From positions 203,418 through 267,417 of the forward strand of contig CAYWDM010000002.1 of NCBI GenBank assembly GCA_964457085.1: DNA of 64,000 nt, written 5' to 3'. Numbering within the stretch: position 1 is the first letter of the stretch; each line of letters opens with the position of its first letter. The translations under genes and the position numbers were made by a program. Of this stretch, positions 24,188 through 56,015 are shown one piece after another. The notes under the pieces were generated by a model. That model was given only the letters and a program-made list of their open reading frames with translations, did not search any database and had not been told where the DNA came from. The DNA comes from an uncultured Pseudomonadales bacterium (GTDB lineage Bacteria; Patescibacteriota; Microgenomatia; UBA1400; PJMF01).

Positions 24188-25105
24188 TCAGAATAACAAC
24201 TGCTGGGATTTCCAATAGTGCCAAACAATCCAGCCATAATAACTGGCTATTATTAAGCCACCAATTATAACATTTACTGGTGCCCATGGATTCTGTTTTT
24301 TTGAAAAAAAGACTAGTTTTGATCTGGAAAAATATAGTTTATTTGTTGAAGCTGTAGCAACAGCTTGAGTTTGAAGTTGTTGCCTATTCGTTTCGGCTGA
24401 GGGTGAGGCTCTTTTCCCTAGATTAGGAGTTGGTTGCGTTTTAATGATTAGATTGATTCTGTTTGCTAGGTTAGTGGTTGTTTCCGAAACTACGGTTTCA
24501 TTTTTATTGATGAACTGACTGAATTCACTTTGTAAGGATGCAGTCGGAGTCGGTGGCTGTGTGTGGTTTTTTGTTGGTGTGGGTTGTTTCAGGGTAGTGA
24601 CTGTGGCACTAAGTTTTGGGGTTGGTGAAGAAAAAATAGTGGTGGGTTGCGACTGATTTTCTGTCTGTGTTGGGGTATTTAGGTTGGTTGGCGTGGGTGT
24701 AGTTTGTATTGTGATGGTTGGGCTTGCGACTGGTGGGATTATGAAAAAATTAGGACTGGGAGTTTGCCATTCGTAGATGTTCTCTCCAACTAGGGTATAG
24801 CCCAGATCAGTTTTTGCATTTGTATACACAATAGAGCTAATTGGTTCACCAATTTCATTGTAGAGAATTACTCCATCACCAGAGTCATTTAATTTCTTAG
24901 TGACTTCTACCAAAACAGTGCTGTTTGGTGCAAGACTAAAATCACCAAAAGTGTAGAGCAAGCTGGGTTGACTCAACTGATCCCAAAGGGTCCAGCTTTC
25001 TAAACTAAAGCTGGTGACAGCTGGGTTATATAGTTCGATCCATTCAAGGCCATCACTTGGCTTGGGAAAAATCTCGGTAATATATGGCAGTACTGTGGTT
25101 AACAC
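24188..25105 (-). CDS. cell-surface protein with lamin-tail-like domain, Thr/Pro-rich linker and C-terminal TM anchor
   Basis: The N-terminal ITEIFPKPSDGLEWIELYNP resembles an LTD domain. A long PT-rich low-complexity linker and a C-terminal hydrophobic helix follow. Confidence 0.5.
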   Translation of the reverse strand: MLTTVLPYITEIFPKPSDGLEWIELYNPAVTSFSLESWTLWDQLSQPSLLYTFGDFSLAPNSTVLVEVTKKLNDSGDGVILYNEIGEPISSIVYTNAKTDLGYTLVGENIYEWQTPSPNFFIIPPVASPTITIQTTPTPTNLNTPTQTENQSQPTTIFSSPTPKLSATVTTLKQPTPTKNHTQPPTPTASLQSEFSQFINKNETVVSETTTNLANRINLIIKTQPTPNLGKRASPSAETNRQQLQTQAVATASTNKLYFSRSKLVFFSKKQNPWAPVNVIIGGLIIASYYGWIVWHYWKSQQLLF

Positions 25106-25250: not shown

Positions 25251-25337
25251 GGAAGCGTCGCATAGTGGCCTAGTGCAGCGGGTTGCTAACCCGCGGTATC
25301 GAAAGATGCCTCGTGGGTTCGAATCCCTCCGCTTCCG
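25251..25337 (+). tRNA. tRNA-Ser (anticodon GCU), class II with long variable arm; CCA not encoded
   Basis: Hand-folded: acceptor GGAAGCG/CGCTTCC, 3-bp D stem, anticodon stem GCGGG/CCCGC with loop TTGCTAA, an 18-nt variable arm, and T arm GTGGG-TTCGAAT-CCCTC (one U-U mismatch). Confidence 0.7.
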
Positions 25338-25470
25338 CACCGTTTTTCAATCCTGCGAAGCAGGTATTGGAAGACGGTATGAATTGGATGAGAAAGCAAG
25401 GTACCTCGCCAAGCGAGTACTTTGATATAAGTCATAATCGAGCCTGGAAAGGTAAATCCCTCCGCTTCCG

Positions 25471-25742: not shown

Positions 25743-27044
25743 ATGGAAAAGGCTCGCACAGAAAAGAAATGGTCTTTAGTGGCCAAAATTGTGTTGTCAG
25801 TTACGCTAATTATTTTGGTCTTTGGTGCTGTCGCTGTTTCACTAGTTTCAAAATTGGTCTATGGACAACTGCTGCAACAAAAACAGGAGCAGTTGTCAAA
25901 CTTGACACTCGAGCAAGCACATGAGTCTGAGATCGTACTGTCAAAGACACATGCCATTATTGGACAAATTGCTAAAAATCGAGAGCTAATTGCTTACCTA
26001 ATAAAAAAAGCTCCTGAAGTTCAGAATGGTGAGATCGTGGAATTACTAAATGAATTCAACATTGGCAATTCATTTTCAGCACTATATTTAATTGCAGTGG
26101 ATGGAACGACCATGGTTTCAACTGATCAGAAACTTGTGGGTCAAAATTATGGTTTTCGAGAATATTTCACTCAGGCGATGGAAGGAGAGCCAGGGTTTGA
26201 TGTGGCTGTTGGAGTTACCACAGGTGAATTGGAGTATTACTTGGCGATGCCGGTAGTGTTAAATGATCATGTATTGGCAGTCGTTGCTGGAAAGATGCGA
26301 CCGACTGTTCTGTTGGCGGAAATTAGGCAGAACGATGCAGAAGCATTAATAGAAAGCAGGCCAAAAAAATATTTGGTGGATAAATATGGTGTGGTGATTT
26401 TTACCAGTGAACAAAAAAAACTATTTAGTAGTTTAGGAGAGTTGCCAGTGAATCTACTTGATGAGACTACTAAACGACAGCGGTATGGCAACTCAACAAT
26501 TTCAGCACTAGATTATCAAGTTGAACTAGATGCAGTATTAAGTGGAACAACGCGAAACCAGAGAAAATTCGATGATGTGAAAGATGGCGAGTTTGAGATC
26601 CTGACGCTAGCCAAAGTTAATAATTATCCTATATATGCGTTTTCTGAGATGGATGTGGACAAGACGCTTGCTGCAGTTAAAGCTGTTGTGCTAATGATTA
26701 GCTCAGTTGTGATTGTGGGAGTATTCGTAACTGCATTGATCGTTGCGGGACTCATTGCTGCTTGGCTGAAACCATTGGCAAATATGCGTCAGCTAGCAAC
26801 TAAAATAGCTGAGGGAGATTTTGATAGTAGAATCACTGATTTGTCAGATGACGAGCTTGGTGATTTGGCCAGATCATTTAATAGAATGACCGACTCTTTG
26901 GTCAAAGCCAAGAAGAATGTTGAGCAGCAAGTAGACATTCGTACCTCAGAACTATCAAAACTGAATCAGTTTATGGTAGGTCGAGAATTAAAAATGGTTG
27001 AATTAAAAAAACAATTGAGGGAAGTTGAAGATGAGAAAAACTGA
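25743..27044 (+). CDS. membrane sensor protein with extracellular Cache-like domain and HAMP domain, no kinase core
   Basis: N-terminal TM, an extracellular region of about 280 aa, a second TM, then HAMP (LANMRQLATKIAEGDFDSRITDLSDDELGDLARSFNRM) and a coiled coil. There is no H-box or ATPase. Confidence 0.65.
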   Translation: MEKARTEKKWSLVAKIVLSVTLIILVFGAVAVSLVSKLVYGQLLQQKQEQLSNLTLEQAHESEIVLSKTHAIIGQIAKNRELIAYLIKKAPEVQNGEIVELLNEFNIGNSFSALYLIAVDGTTMVSTDQKLVGQNYGFREYFTQAMEGEPGFDVAVGVTTGELEYYLAMPVVLNDHVLAVVAGKMRPTVLLAEIRQNDAEALIESRPKKYLVDKYGVVIFTSEQKKLFSSLGELPVNLLDETTKRQRYGNSTISALDYQVELDAVLSGTTRNQRKFDDVKDGEFEILTLAKVNNYPIYAFSEMDVDKTLAAVKAVVLMISSVVIVGVFVTALIVAGLIAAWLKPLANMRQLATKIAEGDFDSRITDLSDDELGDLARSFNRMTDSLVKAKKNVEQQVDIRTSELSKLNQFMVGRELKMVELKKQLREVEDEKN

Positions 27045-29250
27045 AACTGCCATCAAATGGGGTCTGGGAGTTGCACTATTTACACTATTGGTGGGTTATC
27101 TTAATTTACTCGCGTATCAACGAATCAAAGCCGATATTTTGCAGGATTGGGAGTTATTCGCTCAAAATATTGTAAACGGTTTAAATCCAGTAAGCATCGG
27201 TGGCCTGCAAGCGAGTAGCGAGGACTTGGGGTCAGCTGATTATCTGTATATCCAAGATCAGTTGCATAAAATGATGACGGTTGGAGTCATAAAAAATGTG
27301 CGTTGGTTGTACTTGATGAAAGTAGTAAATGGTGATCAAGTAAAATTTACTATAGATTCTGTTCCAGAAAATGATTCCAATCATGCAGTTCCTGGTGAGG
27401 ATTATCTTGATTATCCACAAGCAATTTTAGATGCTCAAGCAACAAAAAAGCGACAATTAGTCGAAAATTATGTTGATGAGTGGGGTAATTTTCTGTCGGT
27501 TTTTGTTCCAGTTATGGATTCAAACAATGAGGTGGTGGGTGTCTTAGGTTTGGATGTTGATGGATCAGCATATCTCGCGGATATTCGTCAAAAAATGATG
27601 TGGCCATTGTTGGTGACAGTGATTGTAGCTGGTCTTTTGATGCTGCTGGCTATTGAATTAAACAGCCAAAAGACCTTACGAGAAAATGCAGCACTCTTCC
27701 ATGCATTGTCTGAAGGGGTGTTGGACGCAATCGTGGCGGTTGATGGTTCGGGACACATAGCATTGTGGAATAAGGCTGCGGAGAAAATGTTTGGCTGGAG
27801 TGATGAAGCGGCAATTGGCCAGCAATTATTCGAACTAATTGCTTCAAAGGATGCCGACAAGGCTATTTGGGAAGAATTGAAGCATTTTTCTCAAGTTAAT
27901 CACGGTATGTTGACGGGCAAAGTTGTGGAGTTAGAGGTTAAACGTAAAAATAAGGATTTGTTTAATGTACAAATCTCTGCATCTACAGTTCAGCTCTGGG
28001 GTACGTGGCATGTAATTGGGATTGTGCACGACATAACGATGAAGGTACAAGAAAATAAAGAACTGCTTTCTAAGAGTCTGGAAATTGAGGATCAACGAAA
28101 AGCAATATTAAATGTGTTGGAAGATGTGAATGAAGAGAAGGATAAAGTAAAGAAACATGCCGAAGAACTCAAAAAGTTCGAGGCTGCTGTACATCTATCA
28201 AATGAAATGATGGTGTTCGTTGATTCGGAGGGAATAGTACTGTGGGGTAATCCAGCAGTTAAAAAAGTTACTGGTTTTACTGCTGCTGAAGCAAGAGGTA
28301 AAAAGGCTGGAGTCTTGTGGGGTAATTTGATGAATGACGAGTGGTATGCACACTTGTGGCATAGAATTAAGGTGGAGAAGAAGATTTTTATTGATACGAT
28401 CACTAACCATCGTAAGAGTGGTGAAAAATTTGTTTCATTACTAACTATTTATCCACTGCTTGATGATCAGGGCGATGTGAAGATTTTTGTGGCTACCCAG
28501 CGTGATGTGACCAGAGAAAAAGAAATTGATCGGATGAAGACTGATTTTATTTCGTTGGCCTCACATCAGTTAAGAACTCCATTGTCGGCAATGAAATGGT
28601 TTTTGGAAATGTTACTTGCGGGTGACATGGGAAAATTGAGTAAAGAACAAAAAGAGGCGGTAACAAATGTGGAAACCTCTAATGAAAGAATGATTTCTTT
28701 GGTAAACGGTTTACTCAACATCTCTCGTATTGAATCTGGTCGAATCATTATTGAACCAGAACCGACTAACATAGCGACTCTGGCAAAATCTATAATAACC
28801 GAATTAACGCCAAAGTTTAAACAAAAACAGCAAACAATACTAATAAGTGCCAGCAGTCGTTTGCCAGAAATCAATCTCGATCCTAGGTTAATACGTCAAG
28901 TATTTATGAATTTGCTTACCAATGCAAATAAATACACTCCTAAAAAAGGTGAGATTACGATATTTATTTCAAAGAAAAATGATGAGGTGGTGGTACAAGT
29001 ATCTGATGATGGCTATGGCATACCAGAGGATGAACAGAACAAGATATTTATGCGGTTTTTCCGTGCTTCTAATGCAGTCAAGCAAGAAACAGATGGCAAT
29101 GGTTTAGGACTTTTCTTGGTCAAGGCAGTTGTGGAGTCATCTGGTGGAAAAATTTGGTTTAAGAGTAAAATAGATTCAGGCACCAGTTTTTGGTTTACTT
29201 TGCCAGTAAAAGGTGTTAAAGCTAAGAAGGGTGAAGTACGATTAAGTTAA
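27025..29250 (+). CDS. sensor histidine kinase with PAS domains
   Basis: Two TM segments flank a periplasmic domain, followed by PAS repeats, H-box SLASHQLRTPL, an N box, and G1 DDGYGIPED / G2 GNGLGLFLVK. Confidence 0.85.
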   Translation: MKMRKTETAIKWGLGVALFTLLVGYLNLLAYQRIKADILQDWELFAQNIVNGLNPVSIGGLQASSEDLGSADYLYIQDQLHKMMTVGVIKNVRWLYLMKVVNGDQVKFTIDSVPENDSNHAVPGEDYLDYPQAILDAQATKKRQLVENYVDEWGNFLSVFVPVMDSNNEVVGVLGLDVDGSAYLADIRQKMMWPLLVTVIVAGLLMLLAIELNSQKTLRENAALFHALSEGVLDAIVAVDGSGHIALWNKAAEKMFGWSDEAAIGQQLFELIASKDADKAIWEELKHFSQVNHGMLTGKVVELEVKRKNKDLFNVQISASTVQLWGTWHVIGIVHDITMKVQENKELLSKSLEIEDQRKAILNVLEDVNEEKDKVKKHAEELKKFEAAVHLSNEMMVFVDSEGIVLWGNPAVKKVTGFTAAEARGKKAGVLWGNLMNDEWYAHLWHRIKVEKKIFIDTITNHRKSGEKFVSLLTIYPLLDDQGDVKIFVATQRDVTREKEIDRMKTDFISLASHQLRTPLSAMKWFLEMLLAGDMGKLSKEQKEAVTNVETSNERMISLVNGLLNISRIESGRIIIEPEPTNIATLAKSIITELTPKFKQKQQTILISASSRLPEINLDPRLIRQVFMNLLTNANKYTPKKGEITIFISKKNDEVVVQVSDDGYGIPEDEQNKIFMRFFRASNAVKQETDGNGLGLFLVKAVVESSGGKIWFKSKIDSGTSFWFTLPVKGVKAKKGEVRLS

Positions 29251-29274: not shown

Positions 29275-29679
29275 ATGAGTGATACAAGAAAGTACACTGT
29301 GTTGGTTTTAGAGGATGAGCCGCTATTACTGAGGGCGATTACACTCAAGCTTAAAAAGCTGGATATTGACTCATTGTCCTGTACTACTGGCAAGCAGGCA
29401 TTGGGCTATTTGGAAGATTTGACTGGTACGGATGATTTACCAGATGCGATCTGGCTCGACTATTATCTTACTGATATGAATGGCTTGGAGTTTATTCAAG
29501 AACTGAAGATACATGAAGGTTGGCAGAATATTCCTGTAGTAGTGGTATCAAATTCCGCTAGCGATGAGAAAGCAAAAAACATGTTGGCACTTGGAGTTAA
29601 AAAGTATATTTTAAAGGCCGATTATCGTTTAGAAGAGATTGTCGATATCCTGAAAACAGTGGTTAAGGATAATATATGA
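29275..29679 (+). CDS. single-domain response regulator (CheY-like receiver)
   Basis: LVLEDEP, phospho-acceptor D in IWLDYYLTDMNG, VVVVSNS and a conserved K in KKYILKA. Confidence 0.8.
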   Translation: MSDTRKYTVLVLEDEPLLLRAITLKLKKLDIDSLSCTTGKQALGYLEDLTGTDDLPDAIWLDYYLTDMNGLEFIQELKIHEGWQNIPVVVVSNSASDEKAKNMLALGVKKYILKADYRLEEIVDILKTVVKDNI

Positions 29680-29848: not shown

Positions 29849-31039
29849 ATGTTGGCACATTTTTCTAGAATTTACCGATTAATTTGTGATTTTTTCACAA
29901 CTGAAAGACGCTATATTTTAGGGCTGTTTATAGTGTCGAGACTCTTTTTCTTTGTGAGTGCATATATCTTGCCACAGTTTGTGATGAAGGGACCTTTTCC
30001 TGAGCAAATATATGACGGAAATGGCATTTTTGATTATTTTATTTTTTGGGATGCAAATTGGTATCAGGTAATTGCAAAGCAAGGTTACTCATTGGTAATT
30101 GGTGGCCAATCAGCCACTGCTTTCTTTCCCTTTTATCCATTACTTACCCGATTAGCTAGCTATATTTTTGTCGATTATAATTTTTCACAGATACTGGTTT
30201 CAAATGTTTCCTTTTTGTTGGCAATGAATGTGTTGTACAAATTGGTGTTGGATGAAAGTAAAAATAGCACAACTGCACGCTTATCATTGATTTTTTTGAG
30301 TTTTAGTTATGGCACGCCTTGGTTGGCTACTGGATATAGTGAATCACTTTTTCTATGGCTAACAATCAGCTACTTTTACTACGCAAAAAAAGATAAAAAC
30401 ATATTGGCGTTTATTTTTGGATTTTTAACTGGCATAACCAGAGGTGGTGCAATATATAGTCTGCTTTTGATTGCAGTAATGTATTCAAAGAAAATGTTTA
30501 CTATCAGCACAAAAAAATTCTTGATGGTATTACTTGTTTCAATTGCTCCATTGATTGGTTTTGTTGCATATTTATTTTTTCTACAACTCGCAGTTGGGGA
30601 TTGGCGAGTTTATTTTCAGACGAACCAGTCTGGTTGGGGGGCAGTGTATACATTCTCACTTGAAGTGATTAAGCAAAAAATCCCGTTGATTGGGTATCAG
30701 TTGGTTACTGCTGATCCACATTTAAATTTTATTAACTGGTCTTGGTTAGGGATGAGTTTTTTTGCAGGACTGTCCATAGTTGTCTTGCTGTGGAAGAAAA
30801 CTGCACTTTGGTTGCCAGCATATATCCTTTGCTTTATTGGTTTTTTTCTGTTCACGCTTCAACGAGAGGGTCTAATGGACTCAATGGCCAGATACTCGAT
30901 TACTGTTTTCCCGATATACTATGCGTTGGGTATTGTCAGCACTCACAGTGAGTTGTTTAAAACTGTGCTGCTCTCACTATTTGTGATGGCTCAGTCGCTA
31001 ATAACAATTATGATTTTTACTGGATACATTGTTAACTAA
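29849..31039 (+). CDS. polytopic membrane protein, possible mannosyltransferase-like glycosyltransferase
   Basis: 396 aa with at least 9 TM helices and aromatic-rich loops; there is no soluble domain. The function is a guess. Confidence 0.35.
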   Translation: MLAHFSRIYRLICDFFTTERRYILGLFIVSRLFFFVSAYILPQFVMKGPFPEQIYDGNGIFDYFIFWDANWYQVIAKQGYSLVIGGQSATAFFPFYPLLTRLASYIFVDYNFSQILVSNVSFLLAMNVLYKLVLDESKNSTTARLSLIFLSFSYGTPWLATGYSESLFLWLTISYFYYAKKDKNILAFIFGFLTGITRGGAIYSLLLIAVMYSKKMFTISTKKFLMVLLVSIAPLIGFVAYLFFLQLAVGDWRVYFQTNQSGWGAVYTFSLEVIKQKIPLIGYQLVTADPHLNFINWSWLGMSFFAGLSIVVLLWKKTALWLPAYILCFIGFFLFTLQREGLMDSMARYSITVFPIYYALGIVSTHSELFKTVLLSLFVMAQSLITIMIFTGYIVN

Positions 31040-31677: not shown

Positions 31678-33105
31678 TTAGGGAGTAGCTGTTTCGGCGA
31701 TAATATCGTCGATTATCTTGTCTACAGAAACGGCACTGCTGGCCATTCCATCAAGATTCAGAGAAATTCGATGTTGCAAGGCGGGGCGAATGAAAGCTTG
31801 AATATCTTCTATTGAAACCGTGGTCCTATTATCCAGCAATGCACGTGCTTTCGCTCCACGTATGATGGCATGTTCACCACGTACTGAAGCTCCAATTTCG
31901 ACATATTTTTGTACTGAGGCAACTGTTGATTTTTTTGGGTGAGTGTTGATTAAAATTTTGCCAGCATATTCAATTAACTTTGATGAAACTGCGATGCTTT
32001 CAATAGTTTTTTGAATAGCTAGTACGTCTTTTACATTGGCTAGTTGTTGGTGTTTTTCATTGTTTTCTCCAACTAATGTTTGTCCAATTATTTGGTTTAA
32101 TACTGATAACTCTGGCAAGTCCAAATGTACTATGAAACCAAATCTGTCCAATTGAGCTTCAGGTAAGGGATATGTCCCAACACTACCATGATTGTTTTGA
32201 GTAGCAATTACGAAAAAAGGCCTGGGTAGGGAGCGCATCCTACCATTTGTTACTTGCCTCTCTTCCATTGCTTCGAGTAGTGCAGCTTGTGTTTTAGGAG
32301 TGGCTCGATTAATCTCGTCAACTAATACGATATTTGCAAATATTGGTCCTTTTTTAAACTCATCGGCATTTTTAGTGCCAGCAGCTCCATGCATTGAAAA
32401 ACCGAGTATGTCTGTGGCCATTAGATCTGGGGTACATTGTATGCGAGTAGATTTTAAGCCTAATATTTTTCCTAATGATTTAGCTAGTTTTGTCTTACCC
32501 AGTCCTGAATTACTCTCTAGAAGTACGTGCCCTCCAGTAAATAAGGCGATGAGAACTAAACGTACTGCCTCCTCCTGACCGATTAGTATTTCATTCAATT
32601 TCTTTTCGACAGTTGCTATTTTTTGAGTTGCTTCTTTGTAGTTAAGCGGTGCCTCATTATTTGACCCAGTTTCCCACTCTTTAAATAAATCAAGGTATGA
32701 TTGCAAAAGCGAAAGTAACTGAGTTAGTTTATCTACAACCTCTGAAGTATCTTCTGTTTTTTTAGGAAATGTGGATTCCAGTTTTCCATCAAAGACTTCT
32801 GCTAACTCAGCAGTATTAATAAGCTCATCAATCTTGTCGATAGCTGTATGAATTATTTTTTCATATAACGCTATTTTTCTTTTGTCTCGTGCAACTTCAA
32901 TGTTACCAATACCTTTGGTTGCATCTTCATACAGATGCAGTGCTGACGCAAAGGTACCACCATCATTGGTGAATAGTTTTTCCTCAAGTACTTCAATCAG
33001 GTTCATAACACTTTGTGCACCTTCAACTTGCAAAGAGTTTATATCTATTGCAGCCTCAATTTGCTGTATTTGCTGTTCTACCTCTGGTCTCATATACAGT
33101 ATCAT
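31678..33105 (-). CDS. MoxR-family AAA+ ATPase with ~170-aa N-terminal coiled-coil extension
   Basis: Walker A NSGLGKTKLAKSLG, RIQCTPDLMATDILG, and Walker B/sensor VLVDEINRATPKTQAALLEAMEERQVT. Confidence 0.8.
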   Translation of the reverse strand: MILYMRPEVEQQIQQIEAAIDINSLQVEGAQSVMNLIEVLEEKLFTNDGGTFASALHLYEDATKGIGNIEVARDKRKIALYEKIIHTAIDKIDELINTAELAEVFDGKLESTFPKKTEDTSEVVDKLTQLLSLLQSYLDLFKEWETGSNNEAPLNYKEATQKIATVEKKLNEILIGQEEAVRLVLIALFTGGHVLLESNSGLGKTKLAKSLGKILGLKSTRIQCTPDLMATDILGFSMHGAAGTKNADEFKKGPIFANIVLVDEINRATPKTQAALLEAMEERQVTNGRMRSLPRPFFVIATQNNHGSVGTYPLPEAQLDRFGFIVHLDLPELSVLNQIIGQTLVGENNEKHQQLANVKDVLAIQKTIESIAVSSKLIEYAGKILINTHPKKSTVASVQKYVEIGASVRGEHAIIRGAKARALLDNRTTVSIEDIQAFIRPALQHRISLNLDGMASSAVSVDKIIDDIIAETATP

Positions 33106-33186
33106 CGTAGCATTTTAAAAATTGAAAAACTACCAATAATCGACAGCAAGTGGTGGTTTGATTGGGATAATCTAGCTATACTGTTG

Positions 33187-36100
33187 ATGATAATGACCGA
33201 AAAAATTAGTATATTTGTTGGCAATAAACTGGCCGAGTTGGGTCTAAAACCACCTAGTTTAACTGATGGATTACTACTTGCTGATGATCCCATCCTGCAT
33301 CGTCATGTCAAACAGCGGATTCGACATAGGTTGGAAGAGAGCGGACAACCACTAAGATCATCGGAAGTTGATGCTGTATTGTCTAATGAAACCTCCATTT
33401 ACTTGATCGAAGAGGTCGAGTTGGAGAGTGTTGACTTTCTAATTGCAAGTGAAAAACTACACAAGCCAGTTTTTGAAAAGATACTGAGGAACATAGCACA
33501 TTTAGACTTTAGAAGTTTTGCGAGTGCACAACAGAGTGAAATCTCTCTTTATGATCCAGAGGTGATTACACCTCAAGTTTCTTGGGCGGTGGAACAAATT
33601 TTTCAAAATTTACCTGGTTTCTTTGAGTCGTTTGAAATAATGATGCAGCATGATCAGGCTTTTGAAGAAGAGCAAACCGATATTGTTCGCAATATCTTCA
33701 TTATTGGATATCTGCATGGCTTTTTAAGCGAGGAAAATCAGAATTTAACCACAGCCAAAGTATTTTTAGCTCATGCTATTAGAAAAAGTAACTCTGACGA
33801 AGAAAAACTAAAGCCATATCCTGCTTTCTTAAGGAGAATAGTGGATAAAGATGAATCAGCTCAGGTTTCACCAAGACTTGAACATCTAAAAAATCATTGG
33901 CTACAGCAACTTGCTCGTCGTTGGTTGTTGTTGTCCAGAACAGATGAAGCTTCAGCTGACACCTTAAGTCAATCGACCAGACAACAGTTGGATGAGCATT
34001 TACCAAAAGACAGAAGACCCGCTGAGAATAGTGCTGTTGCGAGAAAAATGGATTCATTGAATAAAACGAGAACAACATTTCAAGGTGAAGTTGGTAGCTC
34101 CAACGGAAATGCTGATCAGGGATTTAATGAGAGTGCACAAATTAGAGAAGAACTGCAACTTACGGTTGATGTTGCCCAACAGCAACAGTCGACAATTATG
34201 CACATGAGAGATATCTTGCGTCTCTATCAGGGAAATAACCAAGAAGTTTTTCATAATGGTCATCAAAATACAGAAAAATGGTTGCCATTTAAAGTTGCTG
34301 CAGAACCCATTTTGCAAAAGTTAGTTTTAGGTTTTGGTTTGCTTAACGATTCAAAAAATGATGATGCCAGATTTGATTCTGCCGTGGACACAATTGTTAA
34401 ATCAATGATTCAGAGTTTAGCAAATTCTGGTGATGCCCAACACATCAGAGGGATGTTTGGGGCAGATTTTTTTAATTTGGCTCAAGTTGAACAGCTTTGC
34501 TTACTGTCATTTACAGCTCTTTCTTTTATCAATAGGGAGACCAGTACATCTAAGTTGGCAATTCAAATTTTAGATAGAACGGTTATTCCTCGTCTCAATC
34601 AGTATTTCGATTTAGATCGTTACAAAGAGCTATCAACCGAAAATGTACCAGCCTTCAATTTTTCTACTTATGATCAGCGAGTATATGAAGATAAATCTCA
34701 GCACGCAAAATCAGTACTTGGAGATCTGCAGCCAGCTGATGAATTAGTGGGTGTTGATAGTGCTGTTTTTCGGCAGTTGCTTGAAAGAAATAAACAACAA
34801 TTATCAGGTGTCTCCAAGATTTATTCTTTATTTGCTTCACTAACCAGTGAAAACTGGGGAGAACATACGAAGCCGCATACAATAATCTTAGGCGAGATTT
34901 TTGTGATGACGGCTTTTATTTCTGGTCATCTCAACTTTAATTTATCTGAGAGTTTATTAACTGAATCATTAAAAACAATTTTCTCTGAAGACCCATATCT
35001 CTTTTTATTGAAAATAGCCCCAATACCACTAACACTGGCAAGTGGAGCTCTATTGATGGGTGATAAGGCTAGGAAAGACTTTAAGAAATTATTATTATCT
35101 TCTTCAGAATTAAAAAAAGATCTAAAGAAATTTTCTAAAGGTGGATGGAGGCAGATTGCGATGATGCTCATGTTAAGCACATATGCTTTGAGTTCAACCT
35201 TTCCTTTATGGCAAAACCAAGCTGATGAACTGTGGGATTCTGCCAAGGATCGTTGGGAAGAGCTGTTCGATGATGATGAGGTAGTAGAAGGAGAAGATTC
35301 TACTGATGGTATGAGAAATTTTTGGGAGGATAGAAATCCTGAGGCAGTTGATGCCAATGATTTGCTGGACATAGAGAAAGTTGACTGGGGAGAAATTGCA
35401 ATTGAAGAAGACGTGTATGGTAAAGATCCTAATGCCCCAATAGGTTTTATAAACACTTATGTTGTTTCTCCTATAGTAGCTGAGTCTGAGGATCAACAAT
35501 ATAACACTGAGTCAAACATGACTGATTTTGACGCCTTATCTAATGCAGACGATATTATCGTAAATGCGAGTGGCTATGTAATTAGAAATGACGAGATTGA
35601 ATTTACACTTGCAAATGGCGATACCTACATTCAACCTGCTGCAGGTGCAGATTTTGTTGTTAAAAATGGCATAGTTAATGGTCATAATTGGTTTGCAAGA
35701 TTCTTAGAAACAGGCAAATATCTTGACAAAATTATTGTTGTGTCAAAACCTGACAGCCCGAATAATTTTTTCTCCAATGGAGAATTGTTTAATAGATATG
35801 ATTATCCTGACCGATATGTAGCTTCTCTTACTGAGAGTCATGATGAATATTTTGTGGTATATAAAACAAATCCAGATGCTGCAAACGAATTGAATCGATA
35901 TAAGTTGCGACTTGATGAAAATTTAGTCTTTTGGCAAACTCATGCTGCAGATCGAGAAATTGCCCTGACAGTTTTAGAAAAAGAGAATCCAGCAGCAGCA
36001 GCTCTTTATGCACAAATGTTAGCAGAACAGAACCTATTCTGGGCAAATTATGATCCTCAGAATAATCATGAAATTGACTATCTTAAAATGATTGATAAAC

Positions 36101-37389
36101 AGATAACTGCGTATACTCTTTTTGTAAAAACTAACCATGTATACAGTCTTAAATACAAGCCAAAAACGAATTATGCAGAGAAGTATCCTGATGTCGGCGT
36201 TATGCTCGATGTGATGGCACTTAAAAAAGGTGGCTATTATTGTTTAACTGCACATTTGGCTGCACAGGAATGGTTTCTTTCTCTAGGAGTTCCGATGGAT
36301 GGTTTGTATGGATATCATATATATGATGATGCAGGCATGGCTAGATCACGCATTGGTCATGTTCAGACTGGTATTTATGGAGCAGTTCATGATTTTACTC
36401 CTTCCACTCCAAATCCTGGAGAAGATTTACGAGCATTAGATTTCAATAAAAATACTGCTGTGAGTGGACAATTAGATACTCAGGCTGTTGAGCAACCCAC
36501 TATTGTCGATTTATTACAAAAATTTGCAAACGTTGATAATTTATCACTACTTATTCTTTTGTTATCGACAGTGGGAGTTGGATATTCCATTAAATTGGGA
36601 ATACAACAAGCAATGGGTAAAACCACCAAAGATGACTTTGATACAGTAGAACAAGTTAAAAATATTTTGCCCGATACTGAACTTGCATTGAGAGGTTTAA
36701 CCTCGGCATTACTGCAATTATTAAATTTGATTGCAGAAGTTGATCCATCATTTCCAGATAGTGAGGATGGCAGTAAAGACCGAAGGCAGATACTTTCGCA
36801 AATTGTTACGGAGAGTTTGATTTTGGCAACCAAACCCTCAAACACGCAAGCTGAAATATCTAGCAGCATGTCAATGAATCCCGAGGTACTTGCATTGCTG
36901 CAGTTAGTGGGATTAGGTAATGGTACATTGAGTGAGAATGCTCGAGAGCAAGTGGAAAGTTTATGGCAAAAACTCAATAGCAATCAAAGACAGACGAAAC
37001 AGCTACTACAAGAAGTTCTTGGATTACTGGATAGCATATCAACCAACTTCGGAAAAGCATCAGAGATCAAAAGGAAACTGGTGGGTAAGTCAGTGAGAAA
37101 ATTACAAAAGCAACTGATGAGAACGAGAAAAAAAGAAAATAGAATATATGGCATGTATGGTGCATTTTTAGAAAAATCACACTTGGCAAAAGATGAGAAA
37201 ATCAATGAACTTAGAAAATCAATTACTGCAGATTATTTAGCCATTCATCATCAATTAGAGCAACAAAGTAATGAGTTACAACAACTAAACACGCAAGCAA
37301 AACTATTACCTACAAATGTAAAAAGTCTCAAAAAAGTTTTGAGGTTTATGCTTAACCATAGTACAGCACACGACATAGCTCATGAATAA
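33187..37389 (+). CDS. giant hypothetical protein (1401 aa), MoxR-associated
   Basis: The track ORF begins at 33013, inside the divergent MoxR gene. The start is revised to ATG 33187 (MIMTEKISIF), the first ATG after the MoxR start. No recognisable catalytic motifs. One hydrophobic segment (LSLLILLLSTVGVGY) and a C-terminal coiled coil. Confidence 0.55.
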   Translation: MIMTEKISIFVGNKLAELGLKPPSLTDGLLLADDPILHRHVKQRIRHRLEESGQPLRSSEVDAVLSNETSIYLIEEVELESVDFLIASEKLHKPVFEKILRNIAHLDFRSFASAQQSEISLYDPEVITPQVSWAVEQIFQNLPGFFESFEIMMQHDQAFEEEQTDIVRNIFIIGYLHGFLSEENQNLTTAKVFLAHAIRKSNSDEEKLKPYPAFLRRIVDKDESAQVSPRLEHLKNHWLQQLARRWLLLSRTDEASADTLSQSTRQQLDEHLPKDRRPAENSAVARKMDSLNKTRTTFQGEVGSSNGNADQGFNESAQIREELQLTVDVAQQQQSTIMHMRDILRLYQGNNQEVFHNGHQNTEKWLPFKVAAEPILQKLVLGFGLLNDSKNDDARFDSAVDTIVKSMIQSLANSGDAQHIRGMFGADFFNLAQVEQLCLLSFTALSFINRETSTSKLAIQILDRTVIPRLNQYFDLDRYKELSTENVPAFNFSTYDQRVYEDKSQHAKSVLGDLQPADELVGVDSAVFRQLLERNKQQLSGVSKIYSLFASLTSENWGEHTKPHTIILGEIFVMTAFISGHLNFNLSESLLTESLKTIFSEDPYLFLLKIAPIPLTLASGALLMGDKARKDFKKLLLSSSELKKDLKKFSKGGWRQIAMMLMLSTYALSSTFPLWQNQADELWDSAKDRWEELFDDDEVVEGEDSTDGMRNFWEDRNPEAVDANDLLDIEKVDWGEIAIEEDVYGKDPNAPIGFINTYVVSPIVAESEDQQYNTESNMTDFDALSNADDIIVNASGYVIRNDEIEFTLANGDTYIQPAAGADFVVKNGIVNGHNWFARFLETGKYLDKIIVVSKPDSPNNFFSNGELFNRYDYPDRYVASLTESHDEYFVVYKTNPDAANELNRYKLRLDENLVFWQTHAADREIALTVLEKENPAAAALYAQMLAEQNLFWANYDPQNNHEIDYLKMIDKQITAYTLFVKTNHVYSLKYKPKTNYAEKYPDVGVMLDVMALKKGGYYCLTAHLAAQEWFLSLGVPMDGLYGYHIYDDAGMARSRIGHVQTGIYGAVHDFTPSTPNPGEDLRALDFNKNTAVSGQLDTQAVEQPTIVDLLQKFANVDNLSLLILLLSTVGVGYSIKLGIQQAMGKTTKDDFDTVEQVKNILPDTELALRGLTSALLQLLNLIAEVDPSFPDSEDGSKDRRQILSQIVTESLILATKPSNTQAEISSSMSMNPEVLALLQLVGLGNGTLSENAREQVESLWQKLNSNQRQTKQLLQEVLGLLDSISTNFGKASEIKRKLVGKSVRKLQKQLMRTRKKENRIYGMYGAFLEKSHLAKDEKINELRKSITADYLAIHHQLEQQSNELQQLNTQAKLLPTNVKSLKKVLRFMLNHSTAHDIAHE

Positions 37390-40300
37390 TCAGGAATTTT
37401 TATCAGTTGAACCAGAAGGTAAGCAAATAGATACTGCAGTGGATGCAGCAGCCTCTGAGTCTGATATGTTGGAGCTTAAAATTGCTGAAATTTTGGGTCA
37501 ATCCTCTGTAGATTTTATTGAAAAGACTGTTTCTGAACATTTGGGAGATGGTTATGAAAGCAATGACTTAGGACTTGTTGAAAAAATTAATTTAATTTTA
37601 ATCTTAGCTTCAAAAAAGAAAATAGTTGTCTCATCTGGATTACTACGAGCTGTAAAGAGTGTCACTACTATTTTGCCGAATGGTCAAATTGATATCGAGT
37701 ATCTAATCCATCTAAAAGGTGAAAAAAGAAAACACTTATTTCAAGTTATAAGTTCATTGATTCTATTGCTTGGATTAAGTTTCGGTGTCGGAAATGAATT
37801 AGTTGGTCGGATTCAAAATACGGAGAATCGAAATAAAGTTGAGTTGTCAGCAAGTGCGGTTGATGATGAGAATGCTAAGGCATTGGAGTCACGAACTAAA
37901 TTTGAAAGACAATTTAGTAGTGATCTGGAGACTGTAGTGGCAGAGATGGGATGGCAAGACTTCTTAGGTGAATATACCAAAGAAAATAATGAGAGTGTGT
38001 GGTCATCAGAGGAGGTTTTCCAGTTGTTGCGCACACAAGAGCCACGGTATTGGGGTTATTACATCATCGCTTATCCAAATACTTTTGTCGAAGCTGTTGA
38101 TACTTCACAAGTATCACAAGTTGAGTTTATGAGTTCGTGTGGTGATGTCCGCTTTTTCAGTTATTTACAGACTCAGATGGGTGGTGACGTTACTTGGCTT
38201 GATTTGTGGAGTGCTGATGAATTGTTCGAAACACTTAGAATGACAAACCCAAATTGGGGAAAAATAGTGGCAAATAATCAGGTGTTATTTGTTGGTGTTT
38301 TGGATAGAGAAGATTTGACACCACTGGTTCACATGCTAGCTCCTACTGCTAATTCTGCAGATATGCACTATTTCTTGAGAGATTACGAAAACGACTGGGA
38401 TCAGACATGGTCAAGGCGAGAACTTTTAGATGCAATGAAGGCAGACGGTAGTGTCAGCTGGGGGTTCTATGTAAAGCGCTACATGCACCTTTTTGCGAGC
38501 GACATAACCGAAGAAGAATTGTCGGAAGTTATAGAGGATATTTCATTTAGCAGTTCAGGTCTTTACCCTAGCACAAATGACTTAGCATTTTTTTCTGACT
38601 ACTATAAATTGCAGCTTTATGAGGTCGTTGATCCTGCAGCATTTGTACGACTTATTGAAACACATTTTAGCAAAGAAATTGCAGCTCAAATTCTTGCTAA
38701 TTATCCAGAGTTAAATCAATTAGAGCAAAGTAACATTGAGCGATTATTTGAAACTGAAGCAATTAATTATGTATTAGATAACTATGCTCAGTGGGAGTCT
38801 GTATATCCAATAGTAGATATCATGACCTTTTTACGGGACAGTGACCAGAAATATCATTACGCTTTAATTGTGCCGCATCCAGAGTTGTTTCAAGAAATAT
38901 CATTCACTGATGATGAGGTTGTCTTACTTGCTTTTCGAAACAATTTTATGGAAACAACTGGTGAAAAAAAGAAATTTTTTCACAACTATCAGGGACAATT
39001 TGGCTGGGAAAATCAAATTCCTGTGGAGAGAATGCTGAAACTTGGAAGAAGTAAACCAGGTGACGGTATGTATACTGCCGCTCTTTATTTTCCAGAAATA
39101 TTTTTACCTCATTTCACGGATGAGGATATGTATCAATTAGTGCTTTCAAATTCTATTGATTTAGAAGAAGTGGATGTTTTACATTCCACAAATCCAATCT
39201 GGAAACCTTTTACCACTGTAGAGCGTAGGCACACGATGCTTGAATTAGCAAAAAATGATACTGAGCAAGATTGGGAAGAGTTGGTGGCTTCTAGATTCTA
39301 TTTTTTTGAGGATATTTTGACTTTTGATGAAGCAAAAGATATTTTGAGTAAGTATCACTCTAGTACCATTAGAAATAGTCCGCTTTGGCAGAACAACGTA
39401 ACTCCTGAGTGGGAATATTCTTTTTTCAAAGAATCAAATGAAGATATTTTTATTCATTTAATTGCCAATGATCCTGTCTATTTTAGTGAGCAACTTACAG
39501 AAGGTGATAAGTTGTTGGTGTTAAAAAATAAACCAGAGGTAATATTAGATAATTATCTTTTTTGGCAAAAGTTTTTTTCACCAGAATTTATCTTAGACTA
39601 TTTTTACAGTGGTCAGAGTGCGGAGAATTATGGTTATTTTGTTTTAAGAAACAAACACATATTTGGGCATGTTTTTTATAACAGTGGATATGATTTAAAA
39701 AACTCAATTATGCATGGTGGATTAGATACCCTGTTTGATACTAACTATGATACCGACCAATATTACTATGAGGAGTGGTCCGAGTTCGTAAGCATTGAAG
39801 AATTGTTTTACATACTGGAAGGATTTGAAGATGGCAGAGTGAAGATACTTACCAGACCAAACTTATTCTTTGAATTTGTTGAGTTTTCTGACCTAAACCA
39901 GTTTGTGCAAACTGAACATTGCATTTCAGCATTACTAGGTAGCTATGACGATTGGCAGGAGTTATGGAGCTTTGCAGATATCTATGAGGCTGTTAAGGCT
40001 ACTGATCCAAGTTATTCGGCATTCGAACTATTTAGCAGTGATTATGCCGAAGATTTTATTAAATTGACTAGCCATGATGATTTACAATTTTTGATCAGGT
40101 CATATCCTGATGACCTCTCGTATATATTTGGGAGTAACTTGGAAATACTCTTGAAAAAATGGACTGCTGAAGAAATATTAACGGCTCTAAAACAAGAACA
40201 TCCAGATACCTGGGGTGCATTCGTAACGGATGGAATTGTACATTTTGATGCGTTATTATCGCAAAGTGATTTAGAATCGCTGATCGCTCATGGGGCAAAT

Positions 40301-40594
40301 CCGGCTGGATTAATGGAGACTGGTTTGTGGGAGGTAGACGAAGTCTTTGATGTCTATAAAAATAATTTCCCTGAAAAGTGGGGAGAAATTATTCTTACTA
40401 ATAGTGAAATTTTCATGGAGGAGGTTATTCGAAGAGACGTGTCATTACAACAGCTACTTGAGTTTACAGACATTACTATCGCATACGAATATACATACTA
40501 CTGGAGAGATGTCTGGTCAGAAATTGAGATTGAAGACGCTCTGCATGCAGTGTATGGAGATGCACTTCCAGTATATGATGAGGCAGCTGGTTAA
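37382..40594 (+). CDS. giant hypothetical protein (1070 aa) built from ~12-14 degenerate ~75-aa tandem repeats
   Basis: The start overlaps the upstream stop (ATGAATAA). Repeats follow the pattern [D/E]E[V/L]F..L....P..WG..[I/V]...P.LF.E........L (e.g. EEVFQLLRTQEPRYWGYYIIAYPNTFVEAV, DELFETLRMTNPNWGKIVANNQVLFVGV, EEILTALKQEHPDTWGAFVTDGIVHFDAL). The protein is acidic and aromatic-rich. Confidence 0.6.
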   Translation: MNNQEFLSVEPEGKQIDTAVDAAASESDMLELKIAEILGQSSVDFIEKTVSEHLGDGYESNDLGLVEKINLILILASKKKIVVSSGLLRAVKSVTTILPNGQIDIEYLIHLKGEKRKHLFQVISSLILLLGLSFGVGNELVGRIQNTENRNKVELSASAVDDENAKALESRTKFERQFSSDLETVVAEMGWQDFLGEYTKENNESVWSSEEVFQLLRTQEPRYWGYYIIAYPNTFVEAVDTSQVSQVEFMSSCGDVRFFSYLQTQMGGDVTWLDLWSADELFETLRMTNPNWGKIVANNQVLFVGVLDREDLTPLVHMLAPTANSADMHYFLRDYENDWDQTWSRRELLDAMKADGSVSWGFYVKRYMHLFASDITEEELSEVIEDISFSSSGLYPSTNDLAFFSDYYKLQLYEVVDPAAFVRLIETHFSKEIAAQILANYPELNQLEQSNIERLFETEAINYVLDNYAQWESVYPIVDIMTFLRDSDQKYHYALIVPHPELFQEISFTDDEVVLLAFRNNFMETTGEKKKFFHNYQGQFGWENQIPVERMLKLGRSKPGDGMYTAALYFPEIFLPHFTDEDMYQLVLSNSIDLEEVDVLHSTNPIWKPFTTVERRHTMLELAKNDTEQDWEELVASRFYFFEDILTFDEAKDILSKYHSSTIRNSPLWQNNVTPEWEYSFFKESNEDIFIHLIANDPVYFSEQLTEGDKLLVLKNKPEVILDNYLFWQKFFSPEFILDYFYSGQSAENYGYFVLRNKHIFGHVFYNSGYDLKNSIMHGGLDTLFDTNYDTDQYYYEEWSEFVSIEELFYILEGFEDGRVKILTRPNLFFEFVEFSDLNQFVQTEHCISALLGSYDDWQELWSFADIYEAVKATDPSYSAFELFSSDYAEDFIKLTSHDDLQFLIRSYPDDLSYIFGSNLEILLKKWTAEEILTALKQEHPDTWGAFVTDGIVHFDALLSQSDLESLIAHGANPAGLMETGLWEVDEVFDVYKNNFPEKWGEIILTNSEIFMEEVIRRDVSLQQLLEFTDITIAYEYTYYWRDVWSEIEIEDALHAVYGDALPVYDEAAG

Positions 40595-42498: not shown

Positions 42499-43401
42499 AT
42501 GTCAGAAAAATTGGATACTCCAATAGCAAATGAATTGCCCCAATTAGAGATTCCACCCGAAAGCTTGGTTGAAAGTCCAGTAACTCTAGTCAAAACAAAT
42601 CAGAAAAAGCCATTTTTTTTGCTGTTATTGCTGTTGGCAATGGTTTTTGTCAGCATTGGAGTTTGGCTATTCACTCAAAACCAGTTCTCTCAGAAACAAG
42701 TAACAGAAGATACGCTTGAGGAGGAGATGCAGCTAGCTGAAGAATTATCGCCTACACCCAATCCAGGCGAATTTCCATTTGAGGAGGATCAATCATTGGT
42801 TGCAACTGATGAGGCGACTCCTAGTCCAACAGTGGCAGTTAAGTCTGGTGTGTATACAGTGAAGATGACTTTGCTCGATAGTTTAAAAAAACCGACTACT
42901 CAAAATGGATATTTTACTTTGGTTAAATATCTTGCATCGCGGCTCAAATTTTCTGCTGATGAAGCTGCTGTTTATTTTGATACACGAATTACCCAGGACA
43001 TGAATCGTGATAGTGGTATGTTTAATGGTCAATATATTTTGTGGCTCAAATCTGGATTGTTAGAAACTCCAATTGAGGATGAAGATGGCTTTGTGAAGTT
43101 GTTAGTGACTTCACTGGATGAAAAAATCATACCGTATCTACACAATCCACAAACAAATGCCAATGACGCAATGTATTGTGAAGTGAATGGTGACTGCTCT
43201 GTTCGAGATAATATTTGTTCGATTGGTGCATACAATTCATACCAAATATTTGTCGATGTCTATGGTTGTGGTCCTGATGGACAGTACGAAATTAGTAAAG
43301 ATGGTAGTTGTTGGCGTAAAAAAAAGCTCAGCAATCCTCGCTGTATTAAGAATACTTGTACTGCCACAGTTGAACTGGGTGTTTGTCAGTCTGGCCCCTA
43401 G
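42499..43401 (+). CDS. membrane-anchored secreted protein with Cys-rich C-terminal domain
   Basis: N-terminal TM (FFLLLLLLAMVFVSIGVWLF), an acidic linker and 10 Cys in the last 90 aa. Confidence 0.5.
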   Translation: MSEKLDTPIANELPQLEIPPESLVESPVTLVKTNQKKPFFLLLLLLAMVFVSIGVWLFTQNQFSQKQVTEDTLEEEMQLAEELSPTPNPGEFPFEEDQSLVATDEATPSPTVAVKSGVYTVKMTLLDSLKKPTTQNGYFTLVKYLASRLKFSADEAAVYFDTRITQDMNRDSGMFNGQYILWLKSGLLETPIEDEDGFVKLLVTSLDEKIIPYLHNPQTNANDAMYCEVNGDCSVRDNICSIGAYNSYQIFVDVYGCGPDGQYEISKDGSCWRKKKLSNPRCIKNTCTATVELGVCQSGP

Positions 43402-55927: not shown

Positions 55928-56015
55928 GGAGAGGTCGCATAGTGGCCTAGTGCAGCAGTTTACTAAACTGCCGTATCGCAAGATACCCAGGGTTCGAATC
56001 CCTGCCTCTCCGCCA
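55928..56015 (+). tRNA. class-II tRNA, Ser-like paralog with atypical anticodon loop UUACUAA (anticodon ACU); CCA encoded
   Basis: Acceptor GGAGAGG/CCTCTCC, the same D arm as the tRNA at 25251, anticodon stem GCAGT/ACTGC, a 16-nt variable arm, and T arm CAGGG-TTCGAAT-CCCTG followed by GCCA. Confidence 0.65.

Follow-up and report, generated by a model that had tools for sequence, protein, structure and literature searches.

A MoxR ATPase encoded with two giant orphan proteins in ultra-small bacteria: a candidate divergent relative of MoxR-DUF58-TgpA envelope modules

Introduction

What kind of machinery is formed when a MoxR-family AAA+ ATPase is encoded beside two giant proteins that resemble no characterised protein? 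The question is raised by a locus on contig CAYWDM010000002.1 (assembly GCA_964457085.1), of which a stretch of 64,000 nucleotides (nt), hereafter called the window, was analyzed; all positions given below are in its numbering. The locus spans positions 31678-40594 and comprises three genes, encoding the ATPase (MoxR) and two proteins referred to as giant A and giant B. The original prediction, made from the DNA letters, had described these genes as a tightly coupled functional module and a candidate novel system. We report here that the trio is one real conserved module and that giant A carries a divergent transglutaminase-like domain homologous to that of TgpA. With moderate confidence, we regard the locus as a divergent, VWA-less variant of the MoxR-DUF58-TgpA type of envelope module, specific to the Candidate Phyla Radiation (CPR).

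Results

Conservation of the three genes as a module

Relatives of the two giants are very scarce, only 6 being found for giant A and 5 for giant B among 5.8 billion clustered proteins, together with 3 loci in 241 million metagenome records. In a collection of species representatives, the sole genome with a relative of giant A (61-63% identity) was that of 'Candidatus Pacebacteria bacterium CG_4_10_14_3_um_filter_34_15', which belongs to the Minisyncoccota (CPR/Patescibacteria), and scanning a genome collection with peptides specific to the window gave no match. The window therefore probably derives from a related, Pacebacteria-like CPR bacterium. The module is rare, and all its known copies fall within a single small group of ultra-small bacteria of the CPR.

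Every close relative of giant A (46-61% identity) is immediately preceded by a divergently oriented MoxR gene and immediately followed by a relative of giant B, and the adjacent MoxR includes its N-terminal extension at each of these loci. They represent about six lineages, that is, the window and about five others (L003/4/18, L005/6, L007/8, L009/10/11/17/19 and the P0006/P0013 contig). The genes flanking the module differ wholly from one lineage to another: a His-phosphatase and a P-type ATPase in the window, and elsewhere BipA/MazG-like and MgsA genes, a class-A penicillin-binding protein with cytidylate kinase/SmpB, or superoxide dismutase/RNase H-like and NUDIX genes. The overlap of 8 nt between the genes of giants A and B was found at the same position in L003, L005, L007, L009 and L017, in the sequence variants ATGAATAA, ATGCTTAA, ATGATTGA and ATGAATAG, with TAA, TGA or TAG as the stop codon. 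That the overlap is fixed despite these differing stop codons argues for translational coupling of A and B, and the identity of the module proteins across lineages (41-67%) points to purifying selection. Since the composition, gene order and overlap of the trio are constant and the housekeeping genes on either side differ each time, it constitutes a real module. The tight coupling proposed earlier was thus borne out, and the co-occurrence of MoxR, which was to be looked for in related genomes, was observed at every close A/B locus.

Two open reading frames (ORFs) of 396 amino acids (aa) (29849-31039, plus strand) and 300 aa (42499-43401, plus strand) flank the module in the window and are not kept beside its other copies; neither matched Pfam (E <= 0.001) or PHROGs (E <= 0.01).

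A transglutaminase-like domain in giant A

Inspection by eye of the motif GGYYC...GY...IGH...DFTP (residues 1013-1070 of giant A) led to the prediction of a transglutaminase/papain-like core, which was made before any testing. Among 26 aligned domain segments, Cys1017 and His1056 are invariant and Asp1067 is nearly so, a few remote members having Glu; the consensus reads G-x-Y-C ... SRIGH ... D-x-T-P-x-x-P-x-PGEDLS. The Cys is missing in three remote members of the giant A family (P0039, P0047 and P0048). In the AlphaFold model, residues 905-1085 have a predicted local distance difference test (pLDDT) score of 90-97 and adopt a transglutaminase/papain-like fold: a helix (1017-1029) starts exactly at Cys1017 and is followed by four strands (1036-1066) carrying His1056 and Asp1067, so that the Cys stands at a helix N-terminus and the His and Asp on the following strands, as in a Cys-His-Asp triad.

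The family profile was then compared by hhalign with an alignment of the transglutaminase-core sequences 3isr, 6g49, 2f4m and 9crn of the PDB. This comparison scored 27.0 (P 1.9e-4) and placed Cys on Cys and the DxT motif on DAT, against 8.9 ± 1.5 (maximum 14.1) for 100 column shuffles and 6.7 for the reversed profile. Transglut_core was also the only Pfam family matched by more than one of the domain segments, below threshold (2 of 26, best E 0.01; P0037, E 0.23). The DUF3488 (N-terminal, multi-pass) and DUF4129 (C-terminal) families had no Pfam match in giant A or its family. Taken together, profile comparison and structural model indicate that giant A contains a highly divergent, bona fide TgpA-like transglutaminase/thiol-peptidase domain with an intact triad. 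The initial impression that neither giant has a recognisable catalytic motif does not hold for giant A, in which this Cys-His-Asp core lies at residues 1017, 1056 and 1067.

The MoxR ATPase and its N-terminal extension

The ATPase belongs to the MoxR family (MRP-like), with both the AAA_3 core (residues 193-322; E 7.5e-49, 165.4 bits for a Pfam cut-off of 27) and AAA_lid_2 (residues 398-467; E 9e-15, 54.6 bits for a cut-off of 22.7) above the Pfam thresholds. Its closest solved relative is the MoxR-family structure 2r44 (E 1e-54, residues 154-470). The ATPase motifs are intact and show no variation across 5 lineages; they comprise Walker A (G201/G203/K204/T205), Walker B (D263/E264), N304 as sensor 1 and R321 as arginine finger. 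A match to bpMoxR (PF20030) slightly exceeded its cut-off (29.6 bits for 27), AAA_3 fitting far better, and PADLOC returned weak generic AAA matches only.

The unusual N-terminal extension noted by the original prediction was confirmed, with a length of ~165 aa. It is acidic (isoelectric point (pI) 4.6), has no real match in Pfam or NCBIfam (residues 1 to ~165) and is kept in all copies of the module, as indicated by tblastn searches with the extension alone (E 5e-16 to 2e-41; 42-59% identity). No VWA/DUF58 partner was present among the genes within ±10 kb in four independent contexts of the module. A cryptic VWA/DUF58 domain inside A or B was likewise rejected on the basis of predicted secondary structure and of the lack of a profile match: the model of giant B is all-alpha and that of giant A (residues 1-1140) helical and beta-rich, neither having an alpha/beta Rossmann-like region, in agreement with the earlier remark that the giants show no MIDAS motif.

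Giant B, a membrane-anchored repeat protein

An iterated hidden Markov model (HMM) detected 12 repeats in each of 5 homologues of giant B (independent E-values of 1e-12 to 3e-18), with the core motif W-x(3)-E-[VIL]-[FL] ... P-x(2)-W-G ... F. The off-diagonal signal of an hhalign self-comparison was also clear (P 1e-23); self-BLAST revealed no repeats, so that profile methods were needed. Residues 142-1070 have a net charge of -102, a pI of 4.3 and 15.7% F/W/Y. In the AlphaFold model (pLDDT 75), the protein is all-alpha from ~180 to 1060, with many short helices arranged in the general architecture of an alpha-solenoid, and residues 1-180 consist of a poorly modelled N-terminal region and the anchor at 118-141. 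Foldseek against the PDB returned generic HEAT/ARM-type solenoids only (E > 1e-3, template-modelling score ~0.1), and comparison with known repeat families (TPR/HEAT/ARM) gave no Pfam repeat match at E <= 0.1 and no profile match to a solved structure at E <= 10. The ~60-aa aromatic and acidic helical repeat of giant B is of a new type. The description of giant B as built entirely of aromatic and acidic repeats is right as to its acidic, aromatic and repetitive character and has to be corrected for residues 1-180, which are non-repetitive and include the transmembrane (TM) anchor. Giant B is 41-57% identical among homologues, and the charges flanking the anchor weakly favour an orientation with the N-terminus inside and the solenoid outside.

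Architecture and wider family of giant A

Rather than the single hydrophobic segment first reported, three to four conserved segments were found in giant A by a hydropathy scan (~564-582, 602-623, a weaker one at ~652-672, and 1117-1138). The loop 624-651 has a net charge of +6, residues 673-1115 a net charge of -43 with a pI of 4.3, and the C-terminal 260 residues a pI of 9.1. The positive-inside rule applied to these charges suggests a topology in which the N-terminus and the loop would face the cytoplasm, residues 673-1115 the outside, and the C-terminus the cytoplasm again. An AlphaFold model of residues 1-1140, built from a 41-sequence alignment and thus excluding the C-terminal 258 residues, had a mean pLDDT of 74; residues 1-550 are helical (pLDDT ~90), the membrane region has low scores, and residues 725-900 are beta-rich. 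The C-terminal region, which gave only coiled-coil or helical-bundle noise against solved structures, is probably coiled-coil-like. For the coiled-coil character that the original prediction ascribed to this region and to the MoxR extension, the one hint is faint noise of coiled-coil type in the profile searches of solved structures.

An exhaustive HMM search with residues 1-1140 retrieved only 39 proteins among 1.84 billion representatives. This wider family consists mostly of proteins of 1200-1370 aa that are 15-20% identical and match over residues ~100-545 and a motif block at ~930-1095, the N-terminal helical domain being the best-conserved part; 40 of its members had no Pfam match at E <= 0.01. 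The remote relatives (P0015-P0049; loci L012-L016) stand alone, without a MoxR or B-like gene, which indicates that the enzyme family does not generally need MoxR and that the association with MoxR and B is a clade-specific elaboration. One remote relative, on a 1.23-Mb contig, adjoins dockerin and beta-propeller proteins.

Giants A and B are unannotated, extremely rare families. Searches of both against Pfam, NCBIfam, PADLOC and PHROGs gave no real match. All PDB sequences were also searched with HMM profiles built for giant A, giant B, the wider A family and the block that holds the Cys, His and Asp, which gave noise only (coiled coils, designed helical proteins and the 'YYC' motif of antibodies). 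In line with the original prediction, no full-length homology to a characterised protein was found for A or B.

Gene layout and intergenic region

The ORF scan and the AAA_3/AAA_lid_2 matches agree with the earlier description of a minus-strand MoxR gene divergent from the two giants. The start of MoxR at M5 (33093; 471 aa) is favoured by homologues and by the NCBI gene call (471 aa). Candidate first ATG codons of giant A lie at 33187 and 33193, the ORF ending at 37389, and comparison with homologues makes 33193 the most likely start. The two giants of 1401 and 1070 aa with overlapping start and stop were therefore correctly seen as to ORFs and overlap ATGAATAA, giant A being rather 1398 aa long, and with MoxR starting at 33093 and giant A at 33193 the spacer measures ~99 bp instead of 81 bp.

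Table. Features of the module in the window; residue numbers refer to the protein concerned
Feature	Positions	Strand	Remarks
MoxR-family AAA+ ATPase gene	31678..33105	-	475-aa ORF, likely 471 aa from M5 at 33093
AAA+ core of MoxR	32140..32529	-	residues 193-322, AAA_3 match
MoxR N-terminal extension	32611..33105	-	residues 1 to ~165; module-specific
MoxR/giant A intergenic region	33094..33192	.	inverted repeat and -10-like box
Inverted repeat arms AAACTACCA and TGGTGGTTT	33127-33135; 33151-33159		in the MoxR/giant A intergenic region
-10-like TATACT	33177-33182		shortly before the start of giant A
Giant A	33193..37389	+	1398 aa; polytopic membrane protein; ORF scan
Giant A N-terminal helical domain	33193..34842	+	residues 1 to ~550; predicted cytoplasmic
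Giant A TM segments 1-3	34870..35208	+	hydropathy scan; low pLDDT; basic loop 624-651
Giant A acidic region between TM3 and TM4	35209..36537	+	residues 673-1115; predicted extracytoplasmic
Putative TgpA-like transglutaminase/papain-fold domain	35905..36447	+	giant A residues ~905-1085
Candidate catalytic residues	Cys1017 36241-36243; His1056 36358-36360; Asp1067 36391-36393	+	
Giant A TM segment 4	36541..36606	+	residues 1117-1138; seen in each of 5 full-length homologues
Giant A C-terminal basic region	36607..37389	+	~260 aa, pI 9.1; predicted cytoplasmic; conserved in alignment
Giant A/giant B start/stop overlap ATGAATAA	37382..37389	+	8 nt
Giant B	37382..40594	+	1070 aa; single-pass membrane protein; ORF scan
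Giant B transmembrane anchor	37733..37804	+	residues 118-141; hydropathy peak in all 5 homologues
Twelve repeats of giant B	37988..40486	+	~57-65 aa each; residues 203-1035; iterated HMM

The intergenic region between MoxR and giant A is conserved across the 5 module loci that were aligned. The arms of its inverted repeat co-vary (AACTACCA/TGGTAGTT in L003, AACCACCA/TGGTGGTT in L005 and AAACTAC/GTAGTTT in L009), and a conserved TCTAGnTATACT box lies only ~10 nt ahead of the start codon of giant A. The inverted repeat and the proximity of the box to the start suggest an operator or a hairpin, and a giant A leader that would be very short or absent; the region may serve as a divergent control region. 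Neither the promoter scan nor the terminator scan was informative: the promoter scan detected 40 promoter-like sites for 32 ± 5 expected, and the terminator scan 12 terminator-like sites for 5.5 ± 2.6 expected.

The window is chromosomal and contains the ribosomal-protein L3 ... SecY ... RpoA cluster, an ABC transporter, AdoHcy (S-adenosylhomocysteine) hydrolase and arginine-biosynthesis genes. A phage or mobile-element origin was rejected because of the ribosomal-protein/SecY/RpoA cluster and because every copy of the module lies amid housekeeping genes.

Discussion

Comparison with known systems

The nearest counterpart of the module is the PA2875-PA2874-tgpA locus of Pseudomonas aeruginosa, in which we take PA2875 to be MoxR-like and PA2874 to be a DUF58 protein. 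These genes are co-transcribed, TgpA is an essential protein with 6 TM segments, and its periplasmic domain, assayed as residues 180-544, has transglutaminase activity (PMC3507681). Structures of this inner-membrane transglutaminase are available (6g49/6g4h). Giant A shares with TgpA only the fold, the triad and the general layout, in which membrane segments are followed by a predicted outward enzyme domain, a last membrane segment and a predicted cytoplasmic tail. It differs by its size (1398 aa against 668-688 aa), by an extra beta-rich region and by a 260-aa basic region after TM4. Where TgpA has the DUF3488 membrane domain, giant A has a 550-aa helical domain predicted to be cytoplasmic and about three membrane segments, and none of the three profiles that define the TgpA family (DUF3488 - Transglut_core - DUF4129) recognises it at threshold. 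At the level of the locus, the module lacks a DUF58 gene, its MoxR is divergent and bears a 165-aa N-terminal extension, and a 1070-aa solenoid partner is added.

Related clusters have been described in Actinobacteria. The bifidobacterial PFNA cluster encodes the Pkb2 kinase, an FN3 protein, a MoxR ATPase, a DUF58 protein and a transglutaminase (PMC12067865). The actinobacterial Esr clusters encode MoxR, vWA, the surface filament EsrA, the transglutaminase EsrD and kinase/FHA proteins, and the surface protein is shed into the supernatant upon deletion of the transglutaminase gene, its linkage to a surface component being hypothesised by the authors (PMC13622651). PFNA, Esr and our module have in common that a large repetitive surface protein is encoded with a MoxR ATPase and a (here putative) transglutaminase. 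The module is devoid of vWA/DUF58 protein, kinase, FHA, FN3/Ig repeats and beta-propeller; its repeat protein is an alpha-solenoid that carries a membrane anchor of its own, and the transglutaminase domain lies inside a giant polytopic protein. Because the PA2875-PA2874-tgpA, PFNA and Esr clusters are known, the module is a divergent variant, stripped-down and much enlarged, of an operon type that is known though poorly understood, and is neither without precedent nor a candidate for a wholly novel system.

Bat-type MoxR operons (Bacteroides, Leptospira, Francisella) encode MoxR, DUF58, the VWA proteins BatA/BatB and the membrane-anchored TPR proteins BatC/BatE. They resemble the module in pairing a MoxR ATPase with alpha-helical repeat proteins that are anchored in the membrane, and we know of no transglutaminase in them. 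Giant B, in contrast, matches no TPR or other Pfam repeat family, and the module has no VWA/DUF58 protein. As regards LapG-type transglutaminase-like cysteine proteases (4fgo), the match of giant A is much weaker than to TgpA, and LapG is a small soluble periplasmic protein without MoxR link. MoxR-vWA ternary conflict systems combine MoxR with large multidomain partners, rarely including transglutaminase-like thiol peptidase domains (Kaur et al. 2020, PMC7159879). The combination of a MoxR ATPase with large multidomain partners is shared by our module, which lacks the vWA partner and the VMAP, iSTAND, FtsH and beta-propeller components, stands in a housekeeping context and encodes proteins that are conserved rather than diversifying.

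Proposed mechanism

The mechanism that we infer for an envelope module of the MoxR-DUF58-TgpA type is the following. A and B would form a stoichiometric membrane complex, with the enzyme domain of A and the solenoid of B facing outward. Both ends of A (the helical domain at the N-terminus and the basic region at the C-terminus) and the N-terminus of B would face the cytoplasm. A cytoplasmic MoxR hexamer would dock on these cytoplasmic parts through its own N-terminal extension, which may stand in for the absent VWA/DUF58 adaptor, and would spend ATP to assemble, remodel or switch the A/B complex. The outward enzyme might then cross-link or trim surface or cell-wall proteins, possibly B, as proposed for TgpA- and Esr-type transglutaminases.

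Several observations weigh against this assignment. The threshold of Transglut_core (PF01841) is not reached by giant A of the window (no match at E <= 0.1), and the Foldseek E-value of its domain is only 0.16. Only ~200 of the 1398 residues of giant A are accounted for, the remaining ~1200, including the N-terminal 550-aa domain, having no informative relative, as is the case for giant B as a whole, whose orientation rests on a weak charge difference. The remote relatives of giant A (~15-22% identity; ~22% in the N-terminal domain) occur without MoxR or B, and MoxR is divergent here, whereas the Pseudomonas locus forms one operon. Finally, the replacement of a VWA adaptor by the MoxR extension is something that we purely infer.

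Alternative explanations

Bacteria of the CPR are commonly epibionts, and the module might serve in surface sensing or host attachment. B would then act at the surface, as a sensor or adhesin directed at the host cell of a presumed episymbiont, the transglutaminase of A would covalently anchor B or another protein to the cell surface, and MoxR would relay or reset a signal across the membrane instead of acting as an assembly chaperone. The precedent is that of the Esr clusters, in which a surface filament protein is encoded with MoxR, vWA and a transglutaminase presumed to fix it to the cell surface (PMC13622651), and of the PFNA cluster, which is of similar make-up; B is huge, acidic and probably exposed, and in the window a short distance upstream of the module are genes for a Cache-HAMP protein, a histidine kinase with PAS domains and a response regulator. 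These two-component genes, however, adjoin the module in the lineage of the window and not in the other four contexts, for which reason the upstream system was rejected as a part of the module. The conserved module has no vWA protein, kinase/FHA pair or beta-propeller, and B is well conserved (41-57%) with a fixed number of 12 repeats, unlike diversifying sensors or adhesins. We consider this explanation unlikely, though it deserves to be kept in mind. Slimmer chances are given to the possibility that A and B have mainly a structural role in the envelope or as scaffolds, the TgpA-like domain being a binding module and not an enzyme, and MoxR only a chaperone of assembly or insertion. By mass, A and B do consist mostly of non-enzymatic helical or repeat structure, and the loss of the Cys in the remote P0039, P0047 and P0048 indicates that the fold can persist without catalysis. 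Conservation of Cys1017 and His1056 in all 26 members, and of Asp1067 in nearly all, extends to every MoxR-linked copy and argues for retained catalysis in the MoxR-linked clade.

An anti-phage or conflict system centred on MoxR, with the thiol-peptidase domain of A as the effector, is very improbable. It would be in line with the rare occurrence of such domains in MoxR-vWA ternary systems (PMC7159879) and with the bpMoxR score of 29.6 bits, just over the cut-off of 27. The AAA_3 score (165 bits) suits MoxR far better; there is no vWA partner, PADLOC had no match for the giants and weak generic AAA matches for MoxR, all five contexts consist of housekeeping chromosomal genes and not of defence islands, and the module is single-copy and conserved, not hypervariable. 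Hardly any credence is left for the idea that MoxR is a chance neighbour functionally unrelated to the giants, which could account for its location on the opposite strand and for the remote A relatives that have no MoxR: the extended MoxR is adjacent and divergent in every lineage with close A/B relatives, all else differing, and the intergenic region is conserved too.

Significance of the module

What is new here consists of two orphan giant families, a new helical repeat and a MoxR without VWA partner that has its own N-terminal domain; no description of a module of this kind in CPR bacteria came up in our literature search. The role of MoxR in the widespread MoxR-DUF58-transglutaminase clusters, including that of the essential TgpA, has long been unclear, and the module may help to explain it. 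It can be viewed as a natural experiment, in that the association persists in a minimal CPR genome without VWA/DUF58 adaptor and with an extra domain on the ATPase, which suggests that the functional link runs directly between MoxR and the transglutaminase membrane protein. In its boldest form, which we judge rather improbable, this leads to a VWA-independent MoxR machine, in which the N-terminal extension of the ATPase would replace the VWA/DUF58 adaptor and ATP-driven remodelling of the cytoplasmic domains of A, transmitted by its membrane helices, would switch an extracellular transglutaminase that staples the acidic solenoid of B, or surface proteins of the host, to the cell surface. Such a machine would be peculiar to CPR episymbionts and would couple energy to cross-linking or attachment outside the cell. 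With its three parts, the module is also a simpler system in which to test the action of a cytoplasmic AAA+ protein on an enzyme that faces outward, and the present analysis provides a first domain-level annotation of two giant orphan protein families. The expense of ~7.4 kb of a roughly 1-Mb genome on the giants implies an important role in the envelope or in host interaction in this uncultivated lineage.

Additional features of the window

Upstream of the module, a dCache-HAMP sensor ORF (25743-27044, plus strand, 433 aa) overlaps by ~14-20 nt a PAS-PAS-HisKA-HATPase ORF (27025-29250, plus strand, 739-741 aa), which is followed by a stand-alone response regulator (29275-29679). The two ORFs resemble a histidine kinase whose sensor and kinase parts are encoded by separate genes. 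A 488-aa ORF (21811-23277, plus strand) had no Pfam match at E <= 1e-5. A 305-aa protein (24188-25105, minus strand) contains a lamin-tail domain (LTD, E 9e-12) and probably resides at the cell surface; its gene adjoins that of tRNA-Ser(GCT) (25251-25338, plus strand). A second tRNA-Ser gene (55928-56015, plus strand), above the Rfam threshold and 88% identical to the former, has the anticodon ACT (A34). Unmodified A34 outside tRNA-Arg(ACG) is unusual in bacteria, and in this tRNA-Ser(ACT) it may be read as inosine, or the gene may be a decaying duplicate.

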